From an uncultured bacterium (GTDB taxonomy: Bacteria; Chloroflexota; UBA5177; JANWHV01), in the NCBI GenBank assembly GCA_963729625.1, contig CAVSOU010000011.1, positions 160,001 to 224,000 of the forward strand: DNA of 64,000 bases. The letters run 5' to 3'. The notes beneath the pieces are model-generated. The model was not told the origin of the DNA. It ran no database searches and saw nothing but the letters and a program-made list of their open reading frames with translations. The position numbers and the translations under genes were made by a program. Positions 1 through 36,700 of the stretch are shown here, in pieces. The stretch's first letter is position 1, and each line of letters opens with the position of its first letter.

Positions 1-2110
1 TCGCGGTATCGGGACACGTTACGGTCTTTGGCAGCGATCAGCCAGACCTTACCTTTGAGCTGAAGTTCCGAACTAGTGCGGGACAGATGCTCCAGAGCGG
101 CCACATGGGCATCCGCTTCGGCACACACCGACTCATCGCACTCCAGGTTGCCGTATGCCATTTTCATGAGTTCAACTGCGACCGCTACGTCAACGAGCAC
201 TGGTCACCCCCGTCGCCGAACACCTCCGCGATGCGCTATCACGCATCTTAAGGGCCTTAGCGCCGGAGTGCGGCCACGGCTGAAACCCGATAGAACCAGC
301 CGGCGACCCGGCCTTATGCTCACGACATCGGAGAACAGTATCTTGTTGGGAGAACAAGGAATCAACCTGTTTGAGGCGTCCTTCTGGATGAAGTACACTC
401 CGCCATCGGTACCCCTGGCCTCGAACGCCTCCCGCAGCGCCGCATCGAATGCGTGAATCCTCTGCATGATCAGGTAGACCTGTAGAGGCGCATAGAACCT
501 CGTCACCGCGATGTCGGCAGACGAGCGCGCCCCGTACATCCTTGAATGCTGTAGCACCGTGTCCTGCTGAAACCGATTCGGATTCCTTCCATAGTAGAAT
601 CCGATGAGGTTGTTGATGGTGATGCCGCGGTCAAGAATCTGGCCACCTATGAAATGGTGAGGCGGCGTGCGAATCTTACTGACCATCTTCAGCAAGCAGG
701 TGCTTACGTCCTTTCAGAGTTGACTCTCTGACTGAGCCGGAAACCGTCTCAAGCGATTCCACGTCCTGCATGCTATCCTCTAGCCAGGCGGCAGTATGCC
801 TTCCAATCGATGGACCGCCGAAGTCGTGTACGCGGCGCGGATCAGGTCGTTGAACCGCGGGCTATCAGCATTGGCCTGATCTACCAGCCCATCCCTAATC
901 GCGCTTGCGACCCGCTCCTGCCACTGATGTGAATCTCGGCTCTGCTCGGTATGGAAGAGAAAGCTATACTTCTGAGCTCGCTGGCCAGAGGCCCGTTGCT
1001 GCAAGCGGCGTATGGTGCCGCCAACAAGGAAGGTCACAATGGCATCGGTGAGAACCTCTGCATTCTTCGCCGACAACACTCGCTCGATCTGAAAGCGCCG
1101 CCGGTCTTCCTTCTTAAGGGCATCGCGCTCTGCAAGTGGGACCTCGCGATACATATAGAACGCGGGCGCATCGGGGTCGCCACTCTGCTCGAAGTATTCG
1201 TCGCCGCCGATGTACTTGTTGTGCGTTGGTAGGAGTACGGTAAACGCCGGGCGCTTCGGCTTGAAGAGTGAGTCTCCGTTGACAACGGTCTCATCGTCCG
1301 GCTGCAAGTACAGCGCGTAAGGTGTTGCGGTCACCTGCAGGTAGGCTGAGTCCGCCACCGAATCCCGAAGCTGGTCGATCTGCTTTGATATCACCCCTGG
1401 TGTGGCAACACCGTTCTCCTTGCGGAAAGTTACTGAGGCGAGGTCAGCCTCGTCGTCAATGATAAGTACAGCCTTGTCTCGCAGAGCCGGATATTTCGTG
1501 TTGAATAGCTGCAGGAGTCGCCGCAGGTTGTCGTCTTCCTTCTTCACAACGAAGATCAGTTTTCGCGTCAGTTCGTATGGGGTAAGGTCTGGCACGGTCA
1601 GAATGTCGTACACGTCGACCTGGTCCGTGGCAATGAACTCTCTAAAGTCCTCCTTAATGCGACTGAGCGTCTGTTCCGCAAGGGACTTGGTGCCCTTCGT
1701 AAGCAGCGATCGCAACATCGTTTCCTTGGTCAGGAAACGCCCGTGCTGCAAACCCCAGGAAGGCTCGAGTCTTGCCACTCTGAATACTGCCGAGAAGTAT
1801 GCCCGGGCGCATGGTCGATGTGGCCTGCTTCTGCAGCTGCTTTAAGACCTCTTGCACGTGTCCCGCAGCTCTGGCGAATCTCCGCGCTTGCTAGCGAGTT
1901 GGAGGTAGAAGAGTTCCACCTCCGGGGAATCCCCGGCAGGCCGTCGTGCCAGGCACAGCTTGATCTGATTCACGGCAAACACGGCCCGGATTTCAGGTAA
2001 GCCAGCGGGGCAGGAAAGTCAGAAAAGCGCTTGCGCCAGTTGACGACGGCCGAGGAACTCACGCCGGCAAGGTCGGCCACCTCGTAGATTCCGATGAGCG
2101 CTTCGGTCAT
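1..2110 (-). pseudogene. N-terminal HTH fused to SF2-helicase-like/Z1-domain protein; several frameshifts, runs off the window start
   Basis: Fragments in successive frames: HTH (IGIYEVADLAGVSSSAVVNWRKR), Walker A-like GSIQSGKT, IIDDEAD, VTATPYA, Z1-type GGQILDRGITINNL...DTVLQHSRMYG; open frame continues to base 1. Confidence 0.75.
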
Positions 2111-2124
2111 TACCCCCTCGATTC

Positions 2125-2208
2125 CCTGAATGTAGTTCACACTCAGCAGTTTATTACGTTCACAAGCAGTTGTCAACGTTGTTCACGACACTCCTGAATG
2201 TAGTTCAC
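2125..2208 (-). promoter_or_regulatory. Sigma70-type promoter TTGACA-17-TAAACT overlaid by four GTGAAC repeats
   Basis: tgtcaa 2171-2176 and agttta 2148-2153 with 17-bp spacer; gttcac at 2135, 2158, 2181, 2203; cctgaatgtagttcac at 2125 and 2193. Confidence 0.75.
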
Positions 2209-2514
2209 GAACATCGCAGGGTTCTCTAGTAGGGTAGAGAACAGGATTGGGCCCGCCTGAGACGTGGAATCCACGGCAAGGGCACGAGTACGACGTTCTG
2301 CGCGGGATGACTAGCCGAGGCCCGGCCACGCGACATCTCGCATCGGCCGACGATGAGCGCAAGCCGGCTGCGGCATGGCTGGGCTCGAGGGTTCCTGATC
2401 AGTGTGAATCGCCTGGGCGGCGGATCGGGGCAGTGCCCCTGCGCGACTCAAGTCGCGGTATGCTTGCCTCAGCAGAGACTAGCTGCTGAGGATCGTTGTC
2501 GAGGCGAGGTGAAA

Positions 2515-2696
2515 TGATGCCGAGAAATCCGTTGTTCTCCACCTATCGGCAGGGCGAGAATCGCGTCACCGCCTCCATGCTCGCCGTCTTCGAGCGACTA
2601 GACTTTTCGTTGCTCGAACGACTCCTGCATGCCGTCCAGGCGAAGCCTCACTGCCATTTGTGTAGTTCACCAATCAGGTCGCTGCGAAATGCCTAG
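2515..2696 (+). pseudogene. N-terminal remnant of a hypothetical gene
   Basis: RBS gaggtg then MMPRNPLFSTYRQGENRVTASMLAVFERL, followed by frameshift and stop. Confidence 0.4.
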
Positions 2697-2718
2697 CCTG
2701 GAGGGGAAGCACACGGAT

Positions 2719-5697
2719 ATGACCCAGGTTGTGATCGAGAATCCGATTATTAACTCGCCATATGACGAGCCGTCTCGCCATTTCAGGTTTTCCGACGAGG
2801 GGATCACAAATGAGATAGCTGCCGGCCGGCGCACCAGCTCGTATTTCATCCCCATCGCCAGGCCGAAGAAGAAGAACAAGCTTCAGCCTGTCCTCGACAC
2901 GGAGTGGGTGCAGGATCGTATCGAAGAGAACAAGGAGATCAACCAGATACGCGACCGCGTCGCGCAATGGCGCCGCGGCGGTTACCTCGGCGTCACGCCG
3001 GTTACGGCTCGCCTGATCGCCTACTGGATCGATCCGGGCCGCGATAGGAAGCTCTTCTTCTGCCAAAATGAGGCGCTCGAGACCGCGATCTACATCACCG
3101 AAGTGGCCAAGAGGTACGGAGACGCTTGGATCGAGAATGAGCTCCGCGCGGCGAACGATACCTCCAACCCCGGGCTGCCGCGTATCGCCTTCAAGATGGC
3201 GACTGGATCAGGCAAGACGGTCGTCATGGCCATGCTTATCGCCTGGCAAACACTCAACAAGCAGGCGAGCTCGCAGGATGCCCGGTTCTCCGATACTTTC
3301 CTGATCGTCACGCCCGGAATCACCATCCGGGATCGGCTGCGGGTCCTACTGCCGAACGATCCTCAGAACTATTACCGCCAACGCGACATCGTTCCGGCAC
3401 AGCTTCAAGAGCAGCTCGGGCAGGCCAAGATTCTGATCACCAACTACCATGCTTTCCAGCTGCGCGAGACGGTTGAGGCCGGCAAGATCACAAAGTCGAT
3501 ACTCGCCAAAGGCCGGCCGAGCCCGTTTGTCGAAACGCCCGACCAGATGGTGCGCCGCGCCTGTCGGGAACTCGGCACCAAGAAGCAGATCATTGTCATC
3601 AATGACGAGGCCCATCACTGCTACCGCCGCAAACCCGATGGTGAGGACGAAGCACTAACCGGCGACGATCGTGTCGAAGCCAAGACGCGTGAAGAAGAGG
3701 CGCGTATCTGGATTTCCGGCATCGAGGCCGTGAAAGAGAAGATCGGCGTGAAAGCCATTTACGACCTTTCGGCCACGCCGTTCTTCTTGCGAGGCTCGGG
3801 CTACCCCGAAGGCACGTTGTTCCCTTGGGTCGTCTCTGACTTCTCTCTGATCGACGCCATCGAGGCCGGAATCGTCAAAGTGCCACGGGTGCCAGTGGCG
3901 GACGATTCGATGACTGGCGAGCAACCCACCTACCGCGACCTCTGGCTCCGCATTCGCGATCATCTGCCCAAGAAAGGACGAAAAACCGACGAGGTGGGAG
4001 GCGAGCCAAATCTGCCGGTTGAACTGCAGGGTGCGCTGCTCAGTCTCTATGGCAACTACGAGAAGTACTACCGCCTGTGGGAGCAGAATGCCCAGGCTCA
4101 TGCCCGCGGTATCACGCCGCCGGTCTTCATCGTCGTCTGTAACAACACCAACGTCTCCAAACTCGTGTTTGACTATATTGCTGGCTGGGAGAAGCGGATT
4201 GGCGACCAGACCATCGTCCAGGCCGGCCAACTAGCCATATTCCGCAACGACGACGGCAACGGCGCCTGGTTGCAACGCCCGAATACCGTCCTGGTGGACA
4301 GCCAGCAGCTCGAATCCGGTGGCTCAATGAGCGACGACTTCAAGAAGGTCGCCGCCCGCGAGATCGATGAGTTCAAAGCTGACTATCGCGCCCGCTTTCC
4401 TGGCCGCGATGCCGAGAGCCTTACCGACGAGGATCTGCTCCGCGAAGTGATGAATACCGTCGGCAAGGCCGGTAAACTCGGCGAGCATGTCAAGTGCGTG
4501 GTCAGTGTCTCAATGCTTACTGAGGGCTGGGACGCCAACACCGTCACGCACGTGCTCGGCGTCCGCGCATTTGGCACGCAGTTGCTGTGCGAGCAAGTAG
4601 TCGGCCGCGGCCTGCGTCGTATGAGCTACGCGGCAAATGAAATGGGGCATTTCGACCCCGAGTACGCGGAAGTCTACGGCGTACCGTTCTCCTTCATCCC
4701 CTGCAGCGGCGCCACGGTCGAACCGAAACTCGGCCCGCTGCCCACCCGAGTGCGCGCCCTCGAGAGCCGCATCGCCAGCGAGATAACCTTTCCTCGGCTG
4801 CTTGGCTACCGCTACGACGTGGCCGGCGAGCGACTGGCCGCGACGTTCACCGATGAATCCAGGCTTGCGCTCTCGACTGCCGACATCCCGACCAAGACTG
4901 AGAACGCACCGATCGTGGGTGAATCAAGCATCCACACCCTCGACGATCTCAAGCACCGCCGGCTCAACGAGGTCGCCTTCCTGCTTGCCAAGCTCACGTT
5001 GGAGAAGTACTTTCGCGATGACGACGGTAACGACAAGCCCTGGCTGTTCCCCCAACTACTCTACATCGCGAAACGGTGGCTTGCTGAGTGCGTCACGCTC
5101 AAGGACAACACGTTCCCCCAGCTACTGCTGCTGATTGGGTTCGCGCATGACGCCGTCGATCGCATATACAAGGCCATCGTCGCCTCAACTGACGGCACCT
5201 CCGCTCTCAAGCCGATCTTGCGACCGTACGACACCGTCGGCTCGACCCGCTATGTCGACTTCGACACTACGCGGCCGGTATTTTCCACACGCGCGGACAA
5301 GTGCCACATCTCCCATGTGGTGGCCGATACGGACTCCTGGGAGCAGAAGATGGCGCAAGCCATCGAGGACCCGCCCGAGGTAACGCGCTATGTCAAGAAT
5401 CACAACCTCGGTTTCACTATCCCGTACACCTTGAATGGTGAGGAGAAGAACTACATTCCGGACTTCATCGTTTGCGTCGAAGACGGCCACGGCCCGAACG
5501 ATCTCCTGAACCTGATCATCGAAGTGACCGGCGAGAAGAAGAAGGACAAGGCTGCAAAGGTCGCCACCGCGAGGACGCTGTGGGTACCGGCGATAAACAA
5601 CCACGGCGGCTTCGGGCGCTGGGCTTTCCTGGAAGTGGCAGATCCGTGGGACGCGCAGAGTCTCATCCGCGGTTTTCTGAAGGGGAGAGCAGCATGA
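2719..5697 (+). CDS. res: Type III restriction enzyme Res subunit (DEAD-box helicase/endonuclease, BPTD_3080-like)
   Basis: MATGSGKT, NDEAHH, LSATP, MLTEGWD, EQVVGRGLR, C-terminal YIPDF...IIEVTG nuclease motif. Confidence 0.93.
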   Translation: MTQVVIENPIINSPYDEPSRHFRFSDEGITNEIAAGRRTSSYFIPIARPKKKNKLQPVLDTEWVQDRIEENKEINQIRDRVAQWRRGGYLGVTPVTARLIAYWIDPGRDRKLFFCQNEALETAIYITEVAKRYGDAWIENELRAANDTSNPGLPRIAFKMATGSGKTVVMAMLIAWQTLNKQASSQDARFSDTFLIVTPGITIRDRLRVLLPNDPQNYYRQRDIVPAQLQEQLGQAKILITNYHAFQLRETVEAGKITKSILAKGRPSPFVETPDQMVRRACRELGTKKQIIVINDEAHHCYRRKPDGEDEALTGDDRVEAKTREEEARIWISGIEAVKEKIGVKAIYDLSATPFFLRGSGYPEGTLFPWVVSDFSLIDAIEAGIVKVPRVPVADDSMTGEQPTYRDLWLRIRDHLPKKGRKTDEVGGEPNLPVELQGALLSLYGNYEKYYRLWEQNAQAHARGITPPVFIVVCNNTNVSKLVFDYIAGWEKRIGDQTIVQAGQLAIFRNDDGNGAWLQRPNTVLVDSQQLESGGSMSDDFKKVAAREIDEFKADYRARFPGRDAESLTDEDLLREVMNTVGKAGKLGEHVKCVVSVSMLTEGWDANTVTHVLGVRAFGTQLLCEQVVGRGLRRMSYAANEMGHFDPEYAEVYGVPFSFIPCSGATVEPKLGPLPTRVRALESRIASEITFPRLLGYRYDVAGERLAATFTDESRLALSTADIPTKTENAPIVGESSIHTLDDLKHRRLNEVAFLLAKLTLEKYFRDDDGNDKPWLFPQLLYIAKRWLAECVTLKDNTFPQLLLLIGFAHDAVDRIYKAIVASTDGTSALKPILRPYDTVGSTRYVDFDTTRPVFSTRADKCHISHVVADTDSWEQKMAQAIEDPPEVTRYVKNHNLGFTIPYTLNGEEKNYIPDFIVCVEDGHGPNDLLNLIIEVTGEKKKDKAAKVATARTLWVPAINNHGGFGRWAFLEVADPWDAQSLIRGFLKGRAA

Positions 5698-6551
5698 GCG
5701 AGGAGCAGCCTGCCGAAGGACACGGCAAGATGATTGTCTTTGGCGCCAAGGAGATCCGCCGAATCTGGCACGATGACGAGTGGTTCTTCTCGGTCGTGGA
5801 CATCGTCGGTGCGCTCACCGACAGCGAGAATCCGCGCAACTACTGGAACATGATGAAGGCTCGAGAGCAACGGCAGAGCGAAGTTCAGTTGTCCACGCTT
5901 TGTGTACAACTGAAGGTGCCCTCCTCTGACGGCAAGAGCTACAAGACCGACTGCGTGAACACTGAAGCCGCTTTCCGCATCATCCAGTCCATCCCCAGCC
6001 CGAGGGCGGAGCCCTTCAAGCGCTGGCTGGCAGAGGTCGGATATGAACGCGTTCAGGAGATCGAGAACCCCGAGCTTGCGCAGCAGCGGATGCGAAGCCT
6101 TTACCAGCAGAAGGGCTATCCAGACGATTGGATTGAGAAGCGCGTGCGCGGCATCGCCGTGCGTGACGAGCTGACGGGCGAATGGCAGAAACGCGGCATC
6201 GCCGACCAACGAGATTTCTCGATCCTCACTGCTGAGATCGCCAAAGCTACCTTTGGTCTGACTCCCTCCCAATACAAAGAGCTCAAGGGTTTGAAGCGCG
6301 AGAACCTGCGCGACCACATGACCGACCTCGAGCTAATCTTCACCATGCTGGGCGAGGCAGCCACTACGGAGATCGCGCGCACGACGGACGCCCAGGGCTT
6401 TGTCCCCAACAAACGCGCCGCCCGCGAGGGCGGTGCGGTCGCGGGTACTGCCCGCCGCCAGCTTGAATCCAAATCGGGCCGGAAGGTTACTACCAGCGGC
6501 AACTACTTGAGCGACAAGCCCGCGCCCAGCCTGCCGCCCAGATCGGAGTAA
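5694..6551 (+). CDS. Bro-N domain protein
   Basis: EIRRIWHDDEWFFSVVDIVGALTDS, IIQSIPSPRAEPFKRWLA, NLRDHMTDLELIF; ATGA overlap with res. Confidence 0.85.
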   Translation: MSEEQPAEGHGKMIVFGAKEIRRIWHDDEWFFSVVDIVGALTDSENPRNYWNMMKAREQRQSEVQLSTLCVQLKVPSSDGKSYKTDCVNTEAAFRIIQSIPSPRAEPFKRWLAEVGYERVQEIENPELAQQRMRSLYQQKGYPDDWIEKRVRGIAVRDELTGEWQKRGIADQRDFSILTAEIAKATFGLTPSQYKELKGLKRENLRDHMTDLELIFTMLGEAATTEIARTTDAQGFVPNKRAAREGGAVAGTARRQLESKSGRKVTTSGNYLSDKPAPSLPPRSE

Positions 6552-6559
6552 TTGCGATC

Positions 6560-9217
6560 ATGGAACGTGTGAAGCCCGCCAAGAGCGTCAAGCCGGCGCA
6601 GGTCGACTCCATTCGCCACAAGGACCGGAGGTCCAATATACCCACGGAGGAGCTGCGCGACTTCGTCGCGGATGATGAGTCAGCGCCGAGTACGATGCTA
6701 TACCCGCGCGATCCCTCGCTCGATCCGCAACTGGTCTGGAAGGGCAAGGACGAACAGGACCGCGAGGATCTCGCGGTACCAGTGGTGCCGATCTATATCC
6801 AGGAGAAGATCCACCCACAGGCGATTATCGACGACCTTTTGGCCCACGCCAGACGCCCGGCAGATGGCCGCTTGGCCGAGGAGGCAGCCGCCTATCAGCT
6901 CGAGCTATTCGAGGACTTCAACGGCGGGCCTCACGACTTCGAGCAGAAGGTCGAGTTCTATTACCACGATCAGAACTGGACCAACCGCATGGTCCTGGGC
7001 GACTCCCTGCTGGTTATGACCTCCCTGGCTGAGAAAGAGGGGCTGAAAGGGAAGGTCCAGACTGTCTACCTCGACCCTCCATACGGCATCTAGTTCGGCT
7101 CCGACTGGCAGGTCAGCACGCGCAAGCGCGATGTGAAAGACGGCAAGGCCGAGGACGCCACGCGCCAGCCAGAGCAGGTACGCGCGTTTCGCGACACCTG
7201 GAAGCTCGGAATACACTCCTACCTAGCGTACTTACGCGACCGTCTGCTGGTCGCTCGTAGCCTATTGACTGAAACGGGCAGCATCTTCGTACAGATTGGC
7301 GATGAGAACGTCCATCTTGTGCGAAACGTGTTGGACGAAGTATTTGGACGGAGCAATTTCTCCGGACAGATCTCTTTCACAAAGACAAGTGGAAGTACAG
7401 CAAGCACGATTCCCTCTGTCTCAGACTACCTGCTATGGTATGCCAAGAACGCTGAGGACGTTAAGTATAGAAAGCTATTCGTTTCAACAGCACCGGGAAG
7501 CGCCGGAGCGGTTGAGTACAAGAGGGTAGAGCTAGCTGACGGCACTAACGCACCAATAAGCCAGTTCATCTCGGATAAACAGCTGGTTCTACCCGCTGAT
7601 GCTAGGATATTCGCAACGGATAGCATAGTTTCTGCAGGTGGTGACGATCCGGATATTGATCTCGAGTGGAATGGAACGAGCTTTCGTCTGTCGTGTAAAC
7701 CAAACCGTCATTGGAAACCTGGGGTAGACGGGATCAAGAGGCTGTGGTCAGTGGGACGGCTTCTTCGTCAGCAAGGACTTCGAATCTACAAGCGGTATTT
7801 TGACGACTTTCCATATCGAGAATTAGTGAAGAATTGGACCGACACCCGTGGCGAGGACGACTCGGTCTACGTCGTACAGACCAATACAAAGGTAATTGAG
7901 CGCTGCCTGTTAATGACCACCGACCCTGGAGATCTGATACTCGACCCAACTTGCGGTAGTGGCACGTCTGCTTTCGTTGCTGAGCAATGGGGGCGCCGCT
8001 GGATCACGTGTGATACCAGCCGAGTTGCATTGGCCCTGGCCCGCACGCGCCTGATGGCTGCTAAGTACCCGTACTACCTTCTCGCCGATTCATCCGAGGG
8101 CAATAGGAAGGAAGCAGAACTTACGGGCAAGCTGGCGCCGGATTACCTGATAGAAGGCGACGTTAGCAAGGGCTTCGTCTACAAACGGGTGCCGCACGTT
8201 ATGCTCAAGTCGATCGCAAATAGCCCGGACATCGTGGAGGGGATGACACGGGAGCAACTTGATGCAGCGATCGCGCGCCACGCCGACAGTGAGACGCTGT
8301 TCGACCAGCCCTACGAGGACAACAAGCGAGTCCGTGTGTGCGGACCCTTCTCGGTCGAAAGCCTGTCGCCACATCGCGTGCTGTCCATCGCCGAAGATAG
8401 CGTTAGCGGAACGGTCAGCGAGCAGGAGGGCCAGCAGCAGCAAGACTTTGCCGTAATGATCCTCGAGAACCTCAAGAAGGCGGGCGTGCAGAACACGCGC
8501 AAGGCAGAGCGGCTCACATTTGACCGTCTGGATCCCTATGCAGGAGCGTGGTTGAACGCAGCCGGTGAATACACGGGCGCCGATGGCAAGACACGGCGTG
8601 TGGCCGTTTCCATCGGTCCTGAACATGGCACCGTCGGGCCGGATCAGGTGAAGGAAGCGGCCAAGGAGGCCGTGCAGGGTATCGGCTTCGACGTGCTTGT
8701 TGTCTGCGGCTTCGCCTTTGATCCCCACGTCGGCGAAGAGGCAAAACGCTACGGCAAGCTGACCGTGTTGCCCACCAAGATGAATCCCGATCTGGCCATG
8801 GGCAATGAGCTGCTCAAGAAGACGGGCGCCGGCAATCTGTTCATGGTGTTCGGCGAGCCAGATGTGGAAATCACGAGACGAGCGGACGACCAGATCGTCG
8901 TCGAGATCAAGGGTGTCGACGTCTACGATCCAACCACGGGGCAGATACGCAGCGCGTCGACCGACGATATCGCCTGCTGGTTCATCGATACCGACTACAA
9001 CGGCGAGAGTTTCTTCGTTCGTCATGCCTACTTCACCGGGGCGGATGAGCCATACGAGAAGCTGAAACGAGCGCTACGGGTAGAGATCGACGAAGGCGCC
9101 TGGAGCAGCCTCTACAGCACGGTAAGCCGTACCTTCGAAAGACCGAAGTTGGGCGAGATCGCGGTGAAGGTCATCAATCACTACGGCGACGAAGTGCTGA
9201 AGGTCTTTGCAGTCTGA
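6560..9217 (+). pseudogene. mod: Type III site-specific adenine DNA methyltransferase (Mod) with in-frame TAG at 7091-7093
   Basis: ORFs 6560-7093 and 7133-9217 share a frame; DPPYGI*FGSDWQ, DPTCGSGT motif I, C-terminal AVKVINHYGDEVLKV. Confidence 0.9.
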
Positions 9218-9219
9218 CG

Positions 9220-9384
9220 GTGTCTGCGGATGAAGCCCGCTGGCAGACTACCGGGATGATTGGTGGCCTTGTGGTCGTCGTCCTGCATACCTGGCCGGAT
9301 GACGAGGATGAACCGGGGCGGATTATCAGCGCTCGACAAGCAACACGGCGCGAGCGAAAGGAGTACGAACATGGCACAGTATGA
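9220..9384 (+). pseudogene. brnT: BrnT toxin, C-terminal half only
   Basis: Hand translation ..EARWQTTGMIGGLVVVVLHTW...RIISARQATRRERKEYE; N-terminal half missing. Confidence 0.75.
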
Positions 9385-9655
9385 AGACCTGACCCCTGCC
9401 CAGCGCGCGGAGATCGACGTCTTGGCAGCGCGGGCCGACGAGGAAATCGACCTCTCCGATATTCCCGAGATTACCGACTGGAGCGATGCGAAGCGCGGAC
9501 TGTTCTACCGGCCGATCAAGCAGCAGTTAACCTTGCGGCTGGATGCAGACGTTGTGGCTTGGTTCAAGGCGCACGCCTCGAAGGATGCAGGATACCAGAC
9601 GACGATCAACCGCGTGCTGCGCGCGTACGTCACGGAGCACGCACGCTCTGCCTGA
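9371..9655 (+). CDS. brnA: BrnA family antitoxin
   Basis: IDLSDIPE...RPIKQQLTLRLDADVVAWFK...GYQTTINRVLRAYV. Confidence 0.88.
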   Translation: MAQYEDLTPAQRAEIDVLAARADEEIDLSDIPEITDWSDAKRGLFYRPIKQQLTLRLDADVVAWFKAHASKDAGYQTTINRVLRAYVTEHARSA

Positions 9656-9919
9656 TATGTAACTCGTCTAGATCCCGGCCTCGCGCCGCAAAGCGCGCGG
9701 TCGATTCCGTCCCGAAGCCATTCCTGATCAAGCGCATCGTGCGGATAGCGCTCGTCGAGGCCGATCGCGTCTGCGTGCGCTTCGCGCATCTTACTCGTGT
9801 TACACATCGTTTACGAATTGATGACGTTGCGACAATGTGTGCGCTCTACATTGTGTTCATGGGCACAAGACCGCCGTTCGGCAGCCTTGCCCGACAAGTA
9901 GCCTGTACAGGAGAAAGTC

Positions 9920-10633
9920 ATGATCGAACACCGCTCCGTCTCGCGTATGCTCTTCACGGCCGCTCTGGGCGGCCTGGTTCTTGCCGGCACGCTCGTGCCT
10001 GCCGCCGGTCACGCCGCGGCCCTGACCGTTCGACCTCAGTCCTTCACCGTCGTGTCCGTACCGAGCGCCACGCCCAATACGCTGATTGTGCAGCGCAGCG
10101 TCACGGGTCCCGAAATCACCGTCACGCTCAGTCCCGCGGCCACCATCGTCCGCCGGTTTGATGGCAAGTCCAATCTCGGCGAGTTCAGCAGCGGCGACCA
10201 CGTCCTTATCACGCGGGTGGCGCCACCCGTGGCCACCGGCGCCGCGACAACCGCGCCTGCGGCAGCCATCACGGCCAGTGCCGTGAAGGATGACAGTATT
10301 CAGGTCGGTTACACCCAGATCAACGGCCGGGTCGTCTTCCTCAATCAGGCGCTCAACCAACTGGTGCTGATCGTCACGGCCGACGAAGGTAAGCTGTCTG
10401 CCATTCCCGTCGGGGACCGCGCGTTCGTCGATGTGACCCCCACCACCCCGGTCAGTCTGGTGGGCAAGCCGGCTGCTACCATGGCCGACGTGCGGCCGGG
10501 CATGGTCCTCACCATGTGGGGTCTGACGCAGAATGAAGCCCATGTGCTGTTCGCCCCGCACGACATCACCCAGCTGCTGGGCAACGCGGCCTCCCTCACG
10601 AAGGTGGCGCCGAACGATAGCACACCAAGGTAA
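9920..10633 (+). CDS. Secreted hypothetical protein with two beta-rich repeats
   Basis: RBS aggag, signal peptide ending AGHAA, repeated VT..TPTT.I/V....G....D..PG..V pattern. Confidence 0.7.
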   Translation: MIEHRSVSRMLFTAALGGLVLAGTLVPAAGHAAALTVRPQSFTVVSVPSATPNTLIVQRSVTGPEITVTLSPAATIVRRFDGKSNLGEFSSGDHVLITRVAPPVATGAATTAPAAAITASAVKDDSIQVGYTQINGRVVFLNQALNQLVLIVTADEGKLSAIPVGDRAFVDVTPTTPVSLVGKPAATMADVRPGMVLTMWGLTQNEAHVLFAPHDITQLLGNAASLTKVAPNDSTPR

Positions 10634-29914: not shown

Positions 29915-30447
29915 TGGATCACTCTCCTGCTAACTGGCGAGATCCTGGCCATTGGTGCGGGCTCGGACATGACGCCCTTTCCGCACTGTCGCCACGCGTC
30001 GCTGCTCAGGCATGGCAGACGGTTAGGATAACATTTCTCCTGCCGGCATGGCGGGAATTGCATCGGCGATGGTTACTTGCGGCACTGCGCTCCGGCTGTC
30101 ACTGCTCTGCGGTGGAGCTTTGTCGTCCCTAGGCCAGGTCACCTTGATATACCGCGCTCGTCGCGTTTCGGCAAGGCTGCCGCGTTCCGCATGCCAGCCG
30201 GCAGGCGCATCACATCACGTCGTCCTCACGGCAACTTCTGCTCGCGGCAACCCGCACCCCACGAGCCGTGCTTGCACGAGGTCCGCCCCCTCAGTAAGCC
30301 GCACAGTGTCGATGGCTTTGGCCGAATTGCCCTCAGCCACAAGAGCCGTTGTGCAACATCGCGCTGCTCCCGTATCATGTCGGTCAACCACGGCGTGGCG
30401 CGAGTCCCATGTCCCTAGTGGCACCATTTTGACATAAGGAGTTACCC

Positions 30448-32157
30448 GTGCGCAGGAGTGCACTGCTCTGCGAGACGTTGAGGCAAGCCCCCGCCGACGC
30501 GGAGTTTGCCGGTCATCGGTACCTGCTGCGTGGTGGGTTTGTCCACCCGCTGGCTGCAGGAATATATTCTCTGCTTCCGCTTGGCCTGCGCGTGAAGCGC
30601 AAGATCGAGCGGGTCCTGCGAGAGGAAATGCAGGCAATCGGCGGGCAGGAGATCGTGTTGCCTGTCGTGCAGCCGGCAGATCTCTGGCAGCAAAGCGGTC
30701 GCTGGAGCTCCCTGGGCCCAGAGCTAGCGCGCCTGAAGGACAGAAACGGCCGTGACCTGGCGCTGGCCATGACGCACGTGGAGGCCGTCACCGACGTTCT
30801 GCGCAGGCATGTTCATTCGTATCGGCGGTTGCCTTTACTCGTGTTCCAGATGCAGACGTCGTTTCGCGACGAGCCACGATCGCGTGGCGGCCTGATCGGC
30901 TTGCGCGAAGTCACGATGCAGGATGCCTACAGCGTCGATTTGTCGACCGGCGGCCTCGATTCGTCGTACCAGCGCGTCTACGACGCGTATCTCCGCATAT
31001 TCGCGCGGCTGGGCCTCTCCGTGCTGGCGGTGCGCGCGGACTCGTCGGCGATCGGCGGCTCCGCGGCGCATGAGTTCATGTTCGTCTCCGATGCCGGGGA
31101 AGATACCGTCGTGGTCTGTGACCAGTGTGGCGCGGCCGCCGATCAACGGGTTGCCGTCTTCCGAAAGGACGCGCCGCCTGCGGAGGATCTGCAGCCGCTC
31201 GAACCGGTCGAGACATTGGCGACGCCGACAATCGCCGCGCTCGCCGCTTTTCTCAAGGTGCCCGCGTCGCGCACTGCCAAGGCCACGTTCTTCACGGCCG
31301 ACGGCCGCCTCGTGTTTGCCGTCGTGCGCGGCGACATGGAGGTCAATGAGACAAAGCTGGCCGCGGTCATCGGCGCCGGCGACCTTCGCTTTGCTGCTCC
31401 GGAGGATCTCGCCGGCGCGCGCATCGTGCCGGGCTACGCCTCGCCCATCGGCATCCACGGCGCGATCGTGGTCGTCGACGATCTGGTGGCTCGCTCACCC
31501 AATCTGGTGGCCGGCGCCAATCGCCACGGCTTTCACCTTCGCAATACCAACGTGCCTCGCGACTATCAGCCGGATTTCATTGCCGACATCGTGAAGGTCC
31601 AGGAGGGCGCGCCGTGCGCCGCCTGCGGCGCATCTGTTCGCCTCACGCGGGCGGTGCAGGTCGGTAGCGCTGTCAAGCTTGGCACCCGCTATTCGCGAGC
31701 GTTCGGCGCCACCTGCCTGGGTGAAGACGGGCAGCTGGCGGAGATTGTCATGGGCTCCTACTGTATCAGTGTCGAGCGCCTGATCGCCTGTTTGGCTGAG
31801 GCGCATCACGACGCACAGGGACTGGTGTGGCCGGCTATCGTCGCCCCGTACGACGTGTATCTCGCAGGCCTGGATCTCGAGAACGAGGCGGTGAGGTCGG
31901 CTGCCGACACGCTCTACGGCGAGCTTCGAGCCGCGGGAGTGGACGTGCTCTATGATGACCGCGACGAGCGGGCAGGAGTGAAGTTCAAGGACGCAGATCT
32001 GCTCGGGCTACCCTGGCGCGCGACGGTCAGCCGAAGGACGCTGGAGCGCAACGCCGCGGAGTTGAAGGCCAGGATCGGAGCTGAGACGCGCGATGTGGCG
32101 CTGGAGCAGGCAGCGAACGCGATCGTTGAGGAAGTTGGGAAAACCAATAACCGTTGA
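30448..32157 (+). CDS. proS: Prolyl-tRNA synthetase-like protein (bacterial type, with INS editing domain) with divergent active-site motifs
   Basis: LWQQSGRW, FRDEPRSRGGL, HEF..GED, VRGDMEVNETKL, GYASPIG, DDRDERAGVKFKDADLLGLP. Confidence 0.85.
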   Translation: MRRSALLCETLRQAPADAEFAGHRYLLRGGFVHPLAAGIYSLLPLGLRVKRKIERVLREEMQAIGGQEIVLPVVQPADLWQQSGRWSSLGPELARLKDRNGRDLALAMTHVEAVTDVLRRHVHSYRRLPLLVFQMQTSFRDEPRSRGGLIGLREVTMQDAYSVDLSTGGLDSSYQRVYDAYLRIFARLGLSVLAVRADSSAIGGSAAHEFMFVSDAGEDTVVVCDQCGAAADQRVAVFRKDAPPAEDLQPLEPVETLATPTIAALAAFLKVPASRTAKATFFTADGRLVFAVVRGDMEVNETKLAAVIGAGDLRFAAPEDLAGARIVPGYASPIGIHGAIVVVDDLVARSPNLVAGANRHGFHLRNTNVPRDYQPDFIADIVKVQEGAPCAACGASVRLTRAVQVGSAVKLGTRYSRAFGATCLGEDGQLAEIVMGSYCISVERLIACLAEAHHDAQGLVWPAIVAPYDVYLAGLDLENEAVRSAADTLYGELRAAGVDVLYDDRDERAGVKFKDADLLGLPWRATVSRRTLERNAAELKARIGAETRDVALEQAANAIVEEVGKTNNR

Positions 32158-32164
32158 AAGGCTT

Positions 32165-33584
32165 CTAGCCCGTCGACATTTGCTTTCGCAGGAGTTCGGC
32201 CTCTCTCCTGGCGGCTTTTGCCTTCTCGGGCTGGCCGATTTCCACATACGATGATGCCAACCTCTCGAGCTCCCGAACTGTCTCGCGCCGCATTCCGGCA
32301 TCGCGATACTGCGCGACGTTCTTTTCCAGAAAATCCACCGATCCAGCGCGATCGCCGCGCCGCCAGCGCGATCGCGCGATGACAAAATAGGCCCGTGCGC
32401 AGGCTTCAGGATCGCCGGTCTCTTCGGCAAGCGCTTGCGCCTGTGCAAACATCTCACGCGCCTCTTCGACCTGGCCCTGCTGATCAAGGACGGTTGCGCA
32501 GTTACCAAGTGCTTCGGAACGACCGATGCGGTCTTCGGTCTGAGTGCGAAGCGCGAGCGCCCGCGTGTAGTGGTCAAGCGCCTCAGAAAGGCGATTCTGC
32601 CCCTCGTACGTTCTACCAAGCTCGTTCAGCGCAACAGCCTGTCCATTCTCATCGCCGAGGCTCTCGCTGATAGCCAGCGCACGGCTCAGGTTCGAGACCG
32701 CAGCCGCCAGCATGCCCTGGGCTGCGAGCGACTTCCCAAGCCTCACTCGAGTGGCGGCCAGAAGCGCTTTATCGCTCTTGCTCTCGAGAAGTGGAAGGGC
32801 CTGCTCCAGCATGCGCCGTGCGGCGTCGTGATTGCCTTGACGCTGGTACACTTCGGCAATGGCGCTCATGGCTTCGCCCGCCTCAGGCGACGATCCACGC
32901 CTCTTCGCGAATGCGAAGGGCTGTCCGCAGGCGCTCAAGGGCGGTGGACTCGCGATCCTGCCTGGAGGCGACGACGCCCGCGGCGTGGTACGCCTCGGCC
33001 AGCAACGGTCGGTCACCGAGCGTCTCAAGCATGGCAATGGCGCGTGTGTAGGTCGCTTCCGCGTCGTCCAGGTTGGCAAGCTCCGTCTGGACGGCGCCGA
33101 TTTGCAGGAGACAGTCGGCGATTAGCGGAACGTTATTCTGTTTTTCACGCATAAACAGCGCCTGGTTGAAACCGGCAAGTGCCTCAGGATACAGCTTCAT
33201 GGCTACGAGAACGCGAGAGGCGGCGCCGACCGACGATGCTGTGGCGTCCAGGTCACCCAGTCGCTCGCATACGGCGACGGATCGCTGCGCCATCGCGTAG
33301 GCGTTCTGATATTGCTCAAGCTGCACATAGAGGCCGCTCATGTCGCGCAGCACCGTAGCAGCCACGGCGAAATTGCCAAGACGATCGTGCAGCACAAGCG
33401 CGCGCTGGCACACCTGCAGAGCCTCGGCCGTCATGCCGTGCTGACGATAGAGGCCGGCAATCCTATCCAGTGCACTTGCTGCGCCCGCGAGATCACCGTC
33501 GGCCTCGCACTCGATCACGGTACGTTGCCACTTGGCGAGCAAGATCCTTCCGGACGATGTTAACGGTGAAGGGGTTTCGGGCAC
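32165..33584 (-). CDS. Tetratricopeptide repeat protein; frameshift near 32890
   Basis: Tandem ~40-aa TPR units across ORFs 32883-33941 and 32165-33079. Confidence 0.8.
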
Positions 33585-33757
33585 GGTCCGCACTCTCCTG
33601 AACCGGCGGGTAACTGCCGGTCTCCATGATACCGCGTGGCGTCCATCCACCGCGACAGTTGTGCCACACCGCGTGCTCTGATAGTAGCGCAAATGCAGGC
33701 GCTTCGCTCGGGAATCGAAGACACTACGACACGATCCGATGACTTCCGTGCGGCGAG

Positions 33758-36700
33758 CTACGGCAGGAGTGCCACCCGGAACGAGCGCACCTGGAACGGT
33801 AGGATCGTGAATGTGAGTGATGCGCCTTCCACGCGCACCGGCCCTGCCGCGCTGTCGGGCTCCTCCAGAATTGTGACGGACGAAGCCTTGACGACCTGAT
33901 TGGCGAACGTGAGCGTTACCGCGCCTCGCTGATTGGCGCAATCGTACACGCGCACGATGAGCCCGCTCCCGTCCTCGGCCGGTTTCACGGTATCAACGAC
34001 CGCATGCCCGCGGTCACTGCGCACGAAGGACGCCTGGGCAGGCAGCCTGGTGCCGGTCCCGGGCACGTACCGTGCGCGCACTGGCAGATTGAACGCAATC
34101 GCGGCCCGCACCGTGTCTTCTATGTGCCAATCGGCGCCGTGAGGGAAGAGCGCGTATGCGAAGCTATGTGCGCCCTCGTCTGCCAGCGGATCCGGCTCGA
34201 TGCCAGATTTGAGGAGTGTCAGGCTCAACACATTTCCGAGGCAGTCATAGCCGTACTTCCCGTCGTTGAGCAGGCTCACGCCGTACGCGCTTTCTGACAG
34301 GTCAGCCCATCGGTGGGCAGGGACCTCGAATCGCGCGGCGTCCCAACTCGTATTGCGGTGTGTCGGCCGCTGCAAGCAGCCGAACGCGCACTCATAGGTG
34401 GCCGCCGTCGCGTGGATCGCGAGCGGGAAGGCCGCCTTGAGCAGAACCTGCCGCTGGTGCCAGTCAATGGTGGTCTGGATGTCAACGCGCGGCGTGTCGG
34501 CGTGCACAAGGATCCGCTGGCGGATCGTGGAGAGTCCATAGCGCCGGACAATCTCCACGCCTGCGCGGACCGGCCCGGTCTCGACAACCTGCCAGGACTC
34601 AACATCGTCAATCTCGACACACTTATCGACATAGAAATCGTCGATATCCCACGCGTCGTTGTGAGTCGGTTTATCTTCAAAGGCCAGGAGCCGGTTCCCA
34701 CCTACGGGCGCAAGCACTTCCCGATTGAAGCGTTTGTCGAAGAGTGACGCAATCCGGCCGCGATCGTCCAGATTCAGGTGGAAGAAACGATTCTCGAGCG
34801 CTCGCTCGCTCACCGAGATCTCCGTGGACGGGGTGGCTGCGGCGCCTCCGGCAAAGACAAGGGCATAGCCCAAGGGCGGCACCGTAAGCCCGGTGACCAA
34901 AACGCCGCGCTCAGCGCCGGTGGCCACGACCTGCGACGGCAGCGCACGCCCTCCGCCGGTCACAAGCGTGCTATCTGCCGGCACGTTTTGCGGCAACCGG
35001 AACTCGAGACTCTCGCTTCGCGGAAATGGAGATGCGTTGAAGACGGCGATGGCGGGCGTGTCCGACTGAATGTGCAGTGCGATTGCATCCTGTGCCTCGG
35101 CAAGCACTCCTCCGGCGGTGGCCAGAACCGACGCGTGCTGTCTGCGCTCGTCCTCATAGACTTCGCCGATCGAAGAGCCGGGCAGAATGTCGTGAAACTG
35201 GTTGAGGAGCACATCCTCCCAGCATGCTGTGAGGCGTTCTCTGCGCGCGGTCTGGTCACGGTCGAACAGCGCTGCCCAGGCGCACCACAGCTCGGCATCG
35301 TGGAGCACGTGCTCGGCGCGCCTGTTATTCCATTTGACGCGTCCCTGGCTGGTATATGTGCCGCGATGCAACTCAAGGTAGAGCTCACCCTCCCAGACAG
35401 GCGCCTTCGCATCGTGGAGAATGCGATCGCTCAGCGTGGCAAGGTACGTTCCGACACTGGTCTGCGAGACGCGAGGTAAACCGGGGTAGTCGCGTAACCT
35501 GGCCGCGTATTCCAGCATCTGTTCGGTCGGCCCGCCGCCGCCGTCTCCGAAGCCGAAGGAATACAAGGTCTCCGTGTTCAATCCCTTGTCGCGGTATCGC
35601 ACCCAGCTTCCCATCACTTCCTTCACCGAGAAGTTGGCGTTGTACGTGGACTGCCCGCGCTTCACAGGATACGGATCGGCCATGTAGTCAAGCGGCTCCC
35701 AGTCGGCGCCGGCCGTCATAAAGTAGCCCAGGACCTCCGTACCATCGATGCCGCGCCAGCGGAACGTATCGTGCGGCATACGGTTGGTCGAATTCCAGCT
35801 GAGCTTGATGGTGGCCATAGCGTTGATTCCGGCACTGCGCATCAGCTGTGGCAGCGCTCCGGTGAAGCCGAAGACATCAGGCAGCCATAGGTAGCCACAT
35901 GTCGCGCCGAAGCGCTCGCGCATAAAGCGCTGGCCGTAGAGGAACTGCCGCACGAGCGATTCGCCGGACGTCAGATTGCAGTCCGGCTCGACCCACATTG
36001 CCCCTGCCGGCTCCCAGCGACCCTCGGCCACGCGCTCCGCGACCTGGCGATACAGCTCCGGCTCGTCTTCCTCCAGCCAGCGATACTGCTGGGGTTGGCT
36101 ACATACGAATCGGTAGTCGGGGTAGCGCTCCATCAGGCGAAGCACTGTGGACCAGCTGCGAGCCACTTTTCGTCTGGTCTGCGATAGATGGCCATAGCCA
36201 GGCAGTGTCGATGTGCGCGTGTCCGACGGCATTGATCGTCGGTCTGTGGGCGGCGCCGTCGACCGCGATCGCTTCAAGTCCTCGCTGTACATGCGCGCGC
36301 GCGCGTGCTACCGATTGTCTGAACTCGTCCAGGGTAGGCTCGGTGCGGTTCACCGTGTTCTCCGCCTCGACCAGTAACCTGAGCAGCGCCACCCGCTCGA
36401 CTGACGCTTCGGGCAGGATGGCGAGCGCTTCGACGCCAACGGCCAGGTCGTAGTAGAACGCTTCAGATTCGCTGTCGAGCAGTTCCAGGCGGCACTCGCC
36501 CACGGTAAACATGTCGGTTGGCTTGCGAGCAACAGTGGTAACCGGCGACGCATAGGCTTCAACCGCCGCGACATGGGAAGCGCCGTCGAAACACTGCGGC
36601 GGCAGGACCACCGATCGATGGTTTTCGTCCAGGCCCTGCCAGGGTCGCCCGTCGAGATAGACCATTGCCTGGCCCCCCAGCGGGAGCGACAGCCGAACCT

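Follow-up and report, generated by a model that had tools for sequence, protein, structure and literature searches.

A P-type prolyl-tRNA synthetase with a replaced synthetic site and conserved editing and anticodon-binding domains: a putative tRNA(Pro) proofreader in an uncultured Chloroflexota bacterium

A stretch of 64,000 nucleotides from an uncultured Chloroflexota bacterium (lineage UBA5177, JANWHV01; contig CAVSOU010000011.1, positions 160,001 to 224,000, of assembly GCA_963729625.1), hereafter the window, encodes at 30448..32157 on the forward strand a full-length bacterial-type (P-type) prolyl-tRNA synthetase (ProRS) whose synthetic site has been replaced and whose INS editing and anticodon-binding domains have been kept. 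We posit from comparative sequence analysis, at a probability of roughly 0.55, that this protein is charging-dead and is retained to deacylate Ala-tRNA(Pro), with specificity for tRNA(Pro). Such a protein would have lost aminoacylation, would still act as a deacylase and would be expressed. The source genome (G000; 5.41 Mb in 21 contigs, 87% complete, 5% contamination) also carries an intact archaeal/eukaryote-type (E-type) ProRS. A first-pass annotation made from the DNA alone had suggested a repurposed protein, and the combination of a lost synthetic site with retained editing and anticodon-binding domains supports that suggestion.

Replacement of the synthetic site

As the first-pass annotation had read it, the frame is unbroken, running uninterrupted for 569 codons from a GTG start to a TGA stop, and direct reading of the sequence places a Shine-Dalgarno motif, AAGGAG, 6 nt 5' of the start (30436..30441, forward strand). 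Membership of the bacterial ProRS family is evidenced by a full-length class IIa core with INS and anticodon-binding domains (Pfam tRNA-synt_2b, tRNA_edit and HGTP_anticodon), by scores above the curated cut-offs of NCBIfam NF006625 (bacterial ProRS; 608.3 bits, cut-off 558) and TIGR00409 (513.6, cut-off 306.7), and by alignment to solved ProRS. The best solved relatives are full-length P-type enzymes, namely S. aureus 5znj (449 bits, residues 1-559), P. aeruginosa 5ucm and E. faecalis 2j3l.

Substitutions were called residue by residue against 5znj and 5ucm, and in a 120-sequence alignment of the window protein with its 119 best database homologues (57-81% identity, mostly labelled Chloroflexota where named). 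For a P-type ProRS with prolyl-adenylate (Pro-AMP), the accessible text of a structural study (PMC13629369) assigns Thr111 and Glu113 of the TXE loop to the proline amino group, Arg142 and Glu144 to motif 2, adenine stacking to Phe157 with Met159 close by, a further contact to Glu211, the proline loop to residues 200-207, service of ribose, metal and alpha-phosphate to Glu422, Gly424, His425 and Phe427, a ribose contact to Gly459, and Arg462 to motif 3. These contacts were mapped onto the window protein by constant motif offsets, +2 in the N-terminal and +18 in the C-terminal part.

About 16-18 lineage-specific substitutions were found in the window protein, and the 18 altered codons are referred to below as the motif sites. 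The TXE loop (30772..30783, forward strand, as are all features of the gene) reads T-H-V-E, so that the Glu present in 119/119 homologues and characteristic of bacterial ProRS is absent (E111V). Across class II motif 2 (codons 134-162; 30847..30933) we find I135M, K138S, R151G, F155V and K158Q, the last three turning the canonical GLIRLREFTMKD into GLIGLREVTMQD; at these positions the homologues hold the loop Arg in 119/119 and the adenine-stacking Phe in 118/119. The motif 2 loop arginine of class II synthetases, here lost by R151G, is an ATP contact. With F155V, two ATP contacts of motif 2 are therefore missing, though Arg140 and Glu142 are kept, as is Met157. In the proline-binding loop (codons 198-205; 31039..31062), D-V-G-M-M-G-G-S/T of the clade has become D-S-S-A-I-G-G-S (V199S, G200S, M201A, M202I). 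The strand serving ribose, metal and alpha-phosphate (31657..31674) has changed from E-V-G-N-I-F to Q-V-G-S-A-V (E404Q, N407S, I408A, F409V), and motif 3 (31750..31779) from M-G-S-Y-G-I-G-V-E-R to M-G-S-Y-C-I-S-V-E-R (G439C, G441S), with the glycines of its GxGxxR pattern lost and Arg444 kept; Glu209 is likewise kept. The canonical residues persist across the 119 homologues, including the nearest (P0002, 81% identical) and the copy of a second species of the genus, G001 (P0003, 73%).

These alignments bear out the changes that had been read from the letters alone, namely THEE to THVE, QTKFRDE to QTSFRDE, the rewriting of GL.R.REF.MKD with loss of the adenine-stacking Phe, and YGIG to YCIS in motif 3. 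A fifth change, proposed as GIEVG(H/N)IF to AVQVGSAV, holds for EVGNIF to QVGSAV; the 'AV' in front of it is normal for the clade, as is the 'AM' that precedes THEE. The replacement of VGMM by SSAI in the proline loop (199-202), which took up to three base changes per codon, together with I135M, N232D and P257L, had gone unremarked. The new loop, SSAIGGS, resembles the SGAIGG loop of the active S. aureus ProRS and of two Chloroflexota genomes that have only the P-type (G031, G039), a likeness that may stem from convergence, from a small conversion patch or from chance.

The concentration of changes on catalytic residues, also proposed in the first-pass annotation, is clear by several measures. 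Unique changes affect 10 of the 23 mapped ligand contacts compared with 43 of 543 other positions (odds ratio 8.9, p=1e-5). Of 161 columns conserved in at least 97% of the homologues, 13 are broken in the window protein and 0-4 in each of eight control homologues; the 13 are distributed as 11/86 in the catalytic domain, 2/49 in INS and 0/26 in the anticodon-binding domain; at a 90% threshold the broken columns number 24/134 in the catalytic domain versus 4/104 elsewhere (p=0.0009). Compared with four canonical relatives, the window protein scores 91.5 bits against tRNA-synt_2b (relatives 101.5-107.2), 88.5 against tRNA_edit (83.5-91.3) and 57.4 against HGTP_anticodon (58.8-62); the loss of score is confined to the catalytic Pfam domain. 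From these replacements, formation of prolyl-adenylate by the window protein appears very unlikely.

In chemical terms the pocket has had five charged residues neutralised (E111V, E404Q, K138S, R151G, K158Q), two aromatic walls turned to Val and the proline loop rewritten. One alternative is that the protein remains an active ligase, re-tuned for another substrate or ligand by making its site smaller, more hydrophobic and free of charge. This would be compatible with the orderly character of the replacements (Glu to Val, Phe to Val at two positions, Lys to Ser or Gln, Arg to Gly, Gly to Ser or Cys), with the retention of Arg140 and Glu142 in motif 2, Glu209, and Arg444 in motif 3, and with the likeness of the new loop to that of active ProRS in other bacteria; the human enzyme, in the accessible text of the structural study, has Thr where G441S falls (PMC13629369). 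Loss of the TXE Glu, however, removes the anchor for any alpha-amino group, the window has no biosynthetic or carrier-protein genes near the ProRS gene, and no second lineage among the 119 homologues conserves the new residues. Several independent ATP contacts, namely the adenine-stacking Phe, the metal/ribose Glu and the motif 2 loop Arg, have moreover gone together. We regard a re-tuned ligase as improbable. The notion that the protein binds some other small molecule, as a ligand-gated tRNA(Pro) deacylase or sensor or as a ligase of a non-proline substrate to tRNA(Pro), is likewise improbable.

Support for the altered codons

Because G000 was recovered by binning (completeness 87%, contamination 5%), one could attribute the altered codons to mistakes in sequencing or assembly, or to a chimeric bin. 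Exactly matching contigs from four public runs (three studies), one of which may be the source sample of the genome assembly, nevertheless cover 13 of the 18 altered codons (151, 155, 158, 199-202, 232, 257, 404, 407, 439 and 441), codons 111, 135, 138, 408 and 409 lying outside them. Run X2 covers codons 151-158, X3 the proline loop, X1 codons 404 and 407, and X1 and X5 motif 3. The first-pass annotation had allowed that reads might show canonical codons; the exact contigs reproduce the altered ones at the 13 codons that they cover. The sole difference within a long matching piece falls at base 31792, the first base of Leu449, a change that we take to be synonymous from the Leu codon family. 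The changes are also frame-keeping substitutions, some of two or three bases per codon, and the neighbourhood of the gene, on a contig of 943 kb, is syntenic with that of the sister species. An artefact is thus exceedingly improbable.

Conservation of the editing and anticodon-binding domains

The INS domain spans codons 226-395 (31123..31632; Pfam tRNA_edit, 88.5 bits). According to the accessible text of a preprint, its signature consists of a Lys (E. coli K279), a gatekeeper His (E. coli H369) and a GXXXP loop (bioRxiv 10.1101/2020.09.11.293571). By alignment, all elements of this INS and ProXp-ala-type signature are present in the window protein, as Lys278 within RTAK (31279-31281), His363 (31534-31536) and the loop G-Y-A-S-P at residues 329-333 (31432-31446). 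The description of INS as canonical in the first-pass annotation holds for the signature residues; 2 of the 49 conserved columns are broken, by N232D and P257L. For the anticodon-binding domain (codons 466-569; 31843..32154) the same description stands in full, with none of 26 conserved columns broken.

Orthology and selection

In G001 a canonical proS has the same flanks as the window gene, a kinase (74% identical) and TPR genes (66-71%; both TPR reading frames adjoin proS there too), which identifies the window gene as its positional orthologue and not an extra copy. This refines the term 'paralog' used in the first-pass annotation. A search for the syntenic locus in three further genomes of the genus (G002, G003, G004) returned a kinase with many paralogues and TPR matches of 40-56% identity on other contigs. 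A quick tree with the topology (P0004,(P0003,(P0001,P0002))), where P0001 is the window protein, places it as sister to P0002 (SH-aLRT 99) inside the Chloroflexota P-type clade, with a terminal branch of 0.27 compared with 0.097 for P0002 (2.8x).

Selection on the gene was assessed by several routes. Pairwise ratios of non-synonymous to synonymous substitution rates (dN/dS) between G000 and G001 are 0.17 in the catalytic, INS and anticodon-binding domains alike, a rough figure as dS is about 1.1 here and saturated, at about 1 or above for every pair; the per-domain comparison proposed in the first-pass annotation thus gives no sign of selection relaxed throughout. A relative rate test rooted on P0003 gives 53 unique changes for the window protein and 27 for P0002 (p=0.005), a difference that shrinks to 35 versus 27 (p=0.37) when the 18 motif sites are left out. 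Counting codons on each branch where the sister's codon is common to an outgroup (326 informative codons outside the motif sites), we find 107 synonymous and 46 non-synonymous changes on the G000 branch and 100 and 29 on the G001 branch. Scans of metagenome and genome contigs for closer relatives with DNA returned no match above 61% identity. Several altered codons differ by two or three bases from those of all relatives (AAG>TCG, GGC>TCG, CCG>TTG), which implies that the synthetic site has long been free to change under continued constraint on the rest. Over most of the branch the residues that contact ligands look as though they drifted freely, and the protein outside them is about as constrained as its active sister.

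These data bear directly on early gene decay, in which a P-type ProRS made redundant by the E-type enzyme has been inactivated, is heading for loss and remains open only for lack of time. The 2.8-fold longer terminal branch, a mildly accelerated INS domain, the restriction of the altered gene to a single lineage and the absence of a detected P-type ProRS in G003 of the same genus are all compatible with decay. A site in which 10 of 23 ligand contacts have been replaced, several by multi-step codon changes, must however have been unconstrained for long, and over the same time the rest of the protein changed no faster than its canonical sister (35 versus 27). The 569 codons hold no stop or frameshift, start codon and Shine-Dalgarno motif are intact, the synonymous to non-synonymous ratio outside the motif sites is 107:46, and no conserved column of the anticodon-binding domain is broken. 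Neither a broken frame nor neutral evolution of the whole gene, as expected of a pseudogene, is observed (open frame, dN/dS 0.17, 107:46), and a gene left without any function by the death of its active site would not be expected to show this pattern. Decay is unlikely, although it is the least unlikely of the alternatives considered.

Two ProRS types in related genomes

The first-pass annotation had called for a second ProRS in the genome. One was found, intact and of the E-type (TIGR00408, 577.6 bits, cut-off 437): a protein of 506 aa encoded on the reverse strand of a 682-kb contig (C7:232399-233817; locus L005, 1498..3018), with canonical TSE, motif 2, motif 3 and C-terminal Tyr and without an editing domain. 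A second P-type ProRS was not found in the 87% complete G000 assembly. Between G000 and G001 the E-type pair is 88.5% identical and the P-type pair 73%, so that the E-type is the more constrained of the two across the genus, which suggests that it is the main charging enzyme. The tRNA(Pro) genes of G000 are those with anticodons CGG, GGG and UGG, all three with C1:G72 and A73. ARAGORN also reported an 89-nt 'tRNA-Asp(atc)' on contig C10 (c[364370,364458]) with an odd anticodon and length, probably a false positive.

Among 41 related Chloroflexota genomes (G000 included; one, G018, unpublished), 24 have a P-type ProRS above the cut-off, 23 an E-type and 11 both. Coexistence of the two types in 11 of the 41 is accompanied by canonical-looking copies of both wherever checked outside G000. 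Closer to G000, within its genus, a ProRS of each type is present in G001 and G004, and the P-type of G002 is partial and lies at the end of a contig.

G000 further encodes a pair of free-standing proteins of YbaK-like type (tRNA_edit), one of 163 aa (C14:32265-32756, forward strand; locus L211, 1429..1920) and one of 227 aa (C8:778571-779254, reverse strand; locus L217, 972..1655). Neither reaches the equivalog cut-off for YbaK. Among solved proteins they match best the uncharacterised 3op6 and the T. thermophilus protein 2cx5, a putative enzyme of trans-editing.

A putative proofreader of tRNA(Pro)

We propose the following scheme. The window gene would be the original P-type ProRS of the lineage, in a genus whose tRNA(Pro) may also be charged by an E-type ProRS that itself lacks an editing domain. 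In one species the P-type enzyme would have lost proline activation through replacement of its contacts to the proline amino group, the proline loop, adenine, ribose and metal, and the ATP gamma-phosphate, and purifying selection would have held the remainder of the protein. The anticodon-binding domain would dock tRNA(Pro) via G35/G36, the 3' end of the tRNA would enter the INS pocket (Lys278, His363 and the GYASP loop), and Ala-tRNA(Pro) mischarged by the E-type ProRS would be hydrolysed in trans. The accessible text of an E. coli study reports that ProRS hydrolyses pre-formed Ala-tRNA(Pro) and that this editing needs the anticodon-binding domain reading G35/G36, not the acceptor stem (PMC3973320), from which we infer that a ProRS without a synthetic site should still deacylate in trans. 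Of the three roles suggested by the first-pass annotation, a trans-editing deacylase is the best supported, and the loss of several ATP contacts makes a ligase with a new substrate improbable. The third, a subunit of a heterodimer, is unlikely and was rejected, as no canonical P-type partner was found in the 87% complete G000 assembly.

A protein that merely binds tRNA(Pro), either as a scaffold presenting it to the YbaK-like deacylases or as a sensor of uncharged tRNA(Pro), would also account for the full conservation of the anticodon-binding domain. The same E. coli work, in its accessible text, reports that YbaK by itself is not specific for a tRNA and depends on ProRS (PMC3973320). Two YbaK-like genes are at hand in G000, to whose products tRNA(Pro) might be presented as E. 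coli ProRS presents it to YbaK. Preservation of the INS catalytic signature, however, would be superfluous for a pure scaffold, and the window offers no regulatory partner or operon context for a sensor, the gene standing solitary between the histidine kinase and TPR genes. We consider a non-enzymatic binder distinctly unlikely.

Several observations weigh against the proposed proofreading role. Eight of the ten other two-type genomes were examined (all except G011 and G021) and all eight have a canonical P-type ProRS, so that having two types is not by itself the driver of the change. In G003, a genome of the same genus (420 contigs, completeness 92%), the E-type alone was detected, which indicates that INS editing may be dispensable, and the two YbaK-like proteins of G000 might already cover editing. 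INS itself has 17 unique changes in the window protein versus 8 in the sister, with a non-synonymous to synonymous ratio of 16:29 on the G000 branch versus 7:37 on the G001 branch (p=0.05), and P257L hits an invariant Pro next to Thr256 at the start of the domain. The first-pass annotation had proposed collecting orthologues that share the substitutions; there are none among the 119 homologues, and the new residues occur in one lineage only. Finally, with R140, E142, E209 and R444 retained, some nucleotide binding may persist.

Relation to known systems

Proteins that descend from the synthetase world and only edit are known both as small domains on their own (ProXp-ala, YbaK, AlaX) and, in archaea, as ThrRS-ed. 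Crenarchaeal ThrRS-ed, the editing half of a split ThrRS-cat/ThrRS-ed pair, is synthetase-derived and combines an editing domain, a non-charging catalytic remnant and an anticodon-binding domain, proofreading for a separate enzyme that lacks editing; it is an old family conserved across its clade. The window protein as we read it would be alike in design, but belongs to another synthetase family with another editing fold, and is apparently recent and found in one lineage. With canonical P-type ProRS with a cis INS domain (NF006625/TIGR00409; 5znj, 5ucm, 2j3l) it shares architecture, descent and the INS and anticodon signatures, and differs in having replaced the TXE Glu, the adenine-stacking Phe, the motif 2 loop Arg, the metal/ribose Glu, four proline-loop residues and two motif 3 Gly. 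The free-standing members of the INS superfamily, ProXp-ala and YbaK, have the job proposed here, clearing mischarged tRNA(Pro) in trans, and the same Lys/His/GXXXP signature; they are single domains of about 160 aa, whereas the window protein has retained the synthetase body in full. Recognition by ProXp-ala is at the acceptor stem, and YbaK shows no tRNA specificity, as far as the accessible text of the E. coli study goes (PMC3973320); the window protein would instead read the anticodon by its own domain.

ProRSx of Streptomyces and Kitasatospora is, like the window protein, a diverged bacterial-type ProRS isoform coexisting with other ProRS genes, and is described in the accessible text as an active ligase that adjoins an anticodon-variant tRNA(ProX) and has altered anticodon-contact residues (PMC10404621). 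In the window protein, by contrast, the changes lie in the catalytic site and not in the anticodon domain. A ProRSx/tRNA(ProX) system was considered and rejected for the window, which has no tRNA gene in its 64 kb; the genome has only the standard CGG, GGG and UGG tRNA(Pro), and the protein nests among canonical Chloroflexota P-type enzymes. In Bacillus thuringiensis, P-type and E-type ProRS coexist and both are expressed and functional, according to the accessible part of a further report (PMC11229370). That case is alike in having both ProRS architectures in one genome with prokaryote-type tRNA(Pro) genes (here C1:G72 and A73), and differs in that the P-type partner in G000 is without an intact synthetic site. 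A full-text literature search returned no account of a full-length charging-dead ProRS keeping INS and anticodon-binding domain, and in the accessible part of a 2022 review the table of synthetase paralogues has ProRSx as its sole ProRS entry (PMC9437257).

The change appears recent and confined to a single lineage, as the nearest relatives are all canonical. With the orthologue of the sister species and an 81%-identical relative still canonical, the case is young enough for the order of events to be read: the E-type enzyme was present, the synthetic site was then released from selection, and the editing and tRNA-binding parts were retained. Because such genes exceed the curated ProRS cut-off, they receive the annotation proline--tRNA ligase, and inferences on metabolism and on essential genes are misled accordingly.

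Genomic setting

The ProRS gene is solitary on its own strand, flanked by a PAS histidine kinase and two TPR genes. No Rfam match to a riboswitch or T-box leader was found across the whole 64-kb window, and a look-up of RNA evidence for the gene gave no entry. A scan for promoters and terminators gave a single promoter-like site, which lies within the coding sequence, and weak terminator-like sites. The two TPR-repeat reading frames (32165..33079 and 32883..33941, both on the reverse strand) overlap by about 200 bases when each is taken from its earliest possible start; translation of the downstream one probably begins later. G+C content is 0.57-0.60 in positions 1-10000 of the window, lower than in the remainder (mostly 0.62-0.67).

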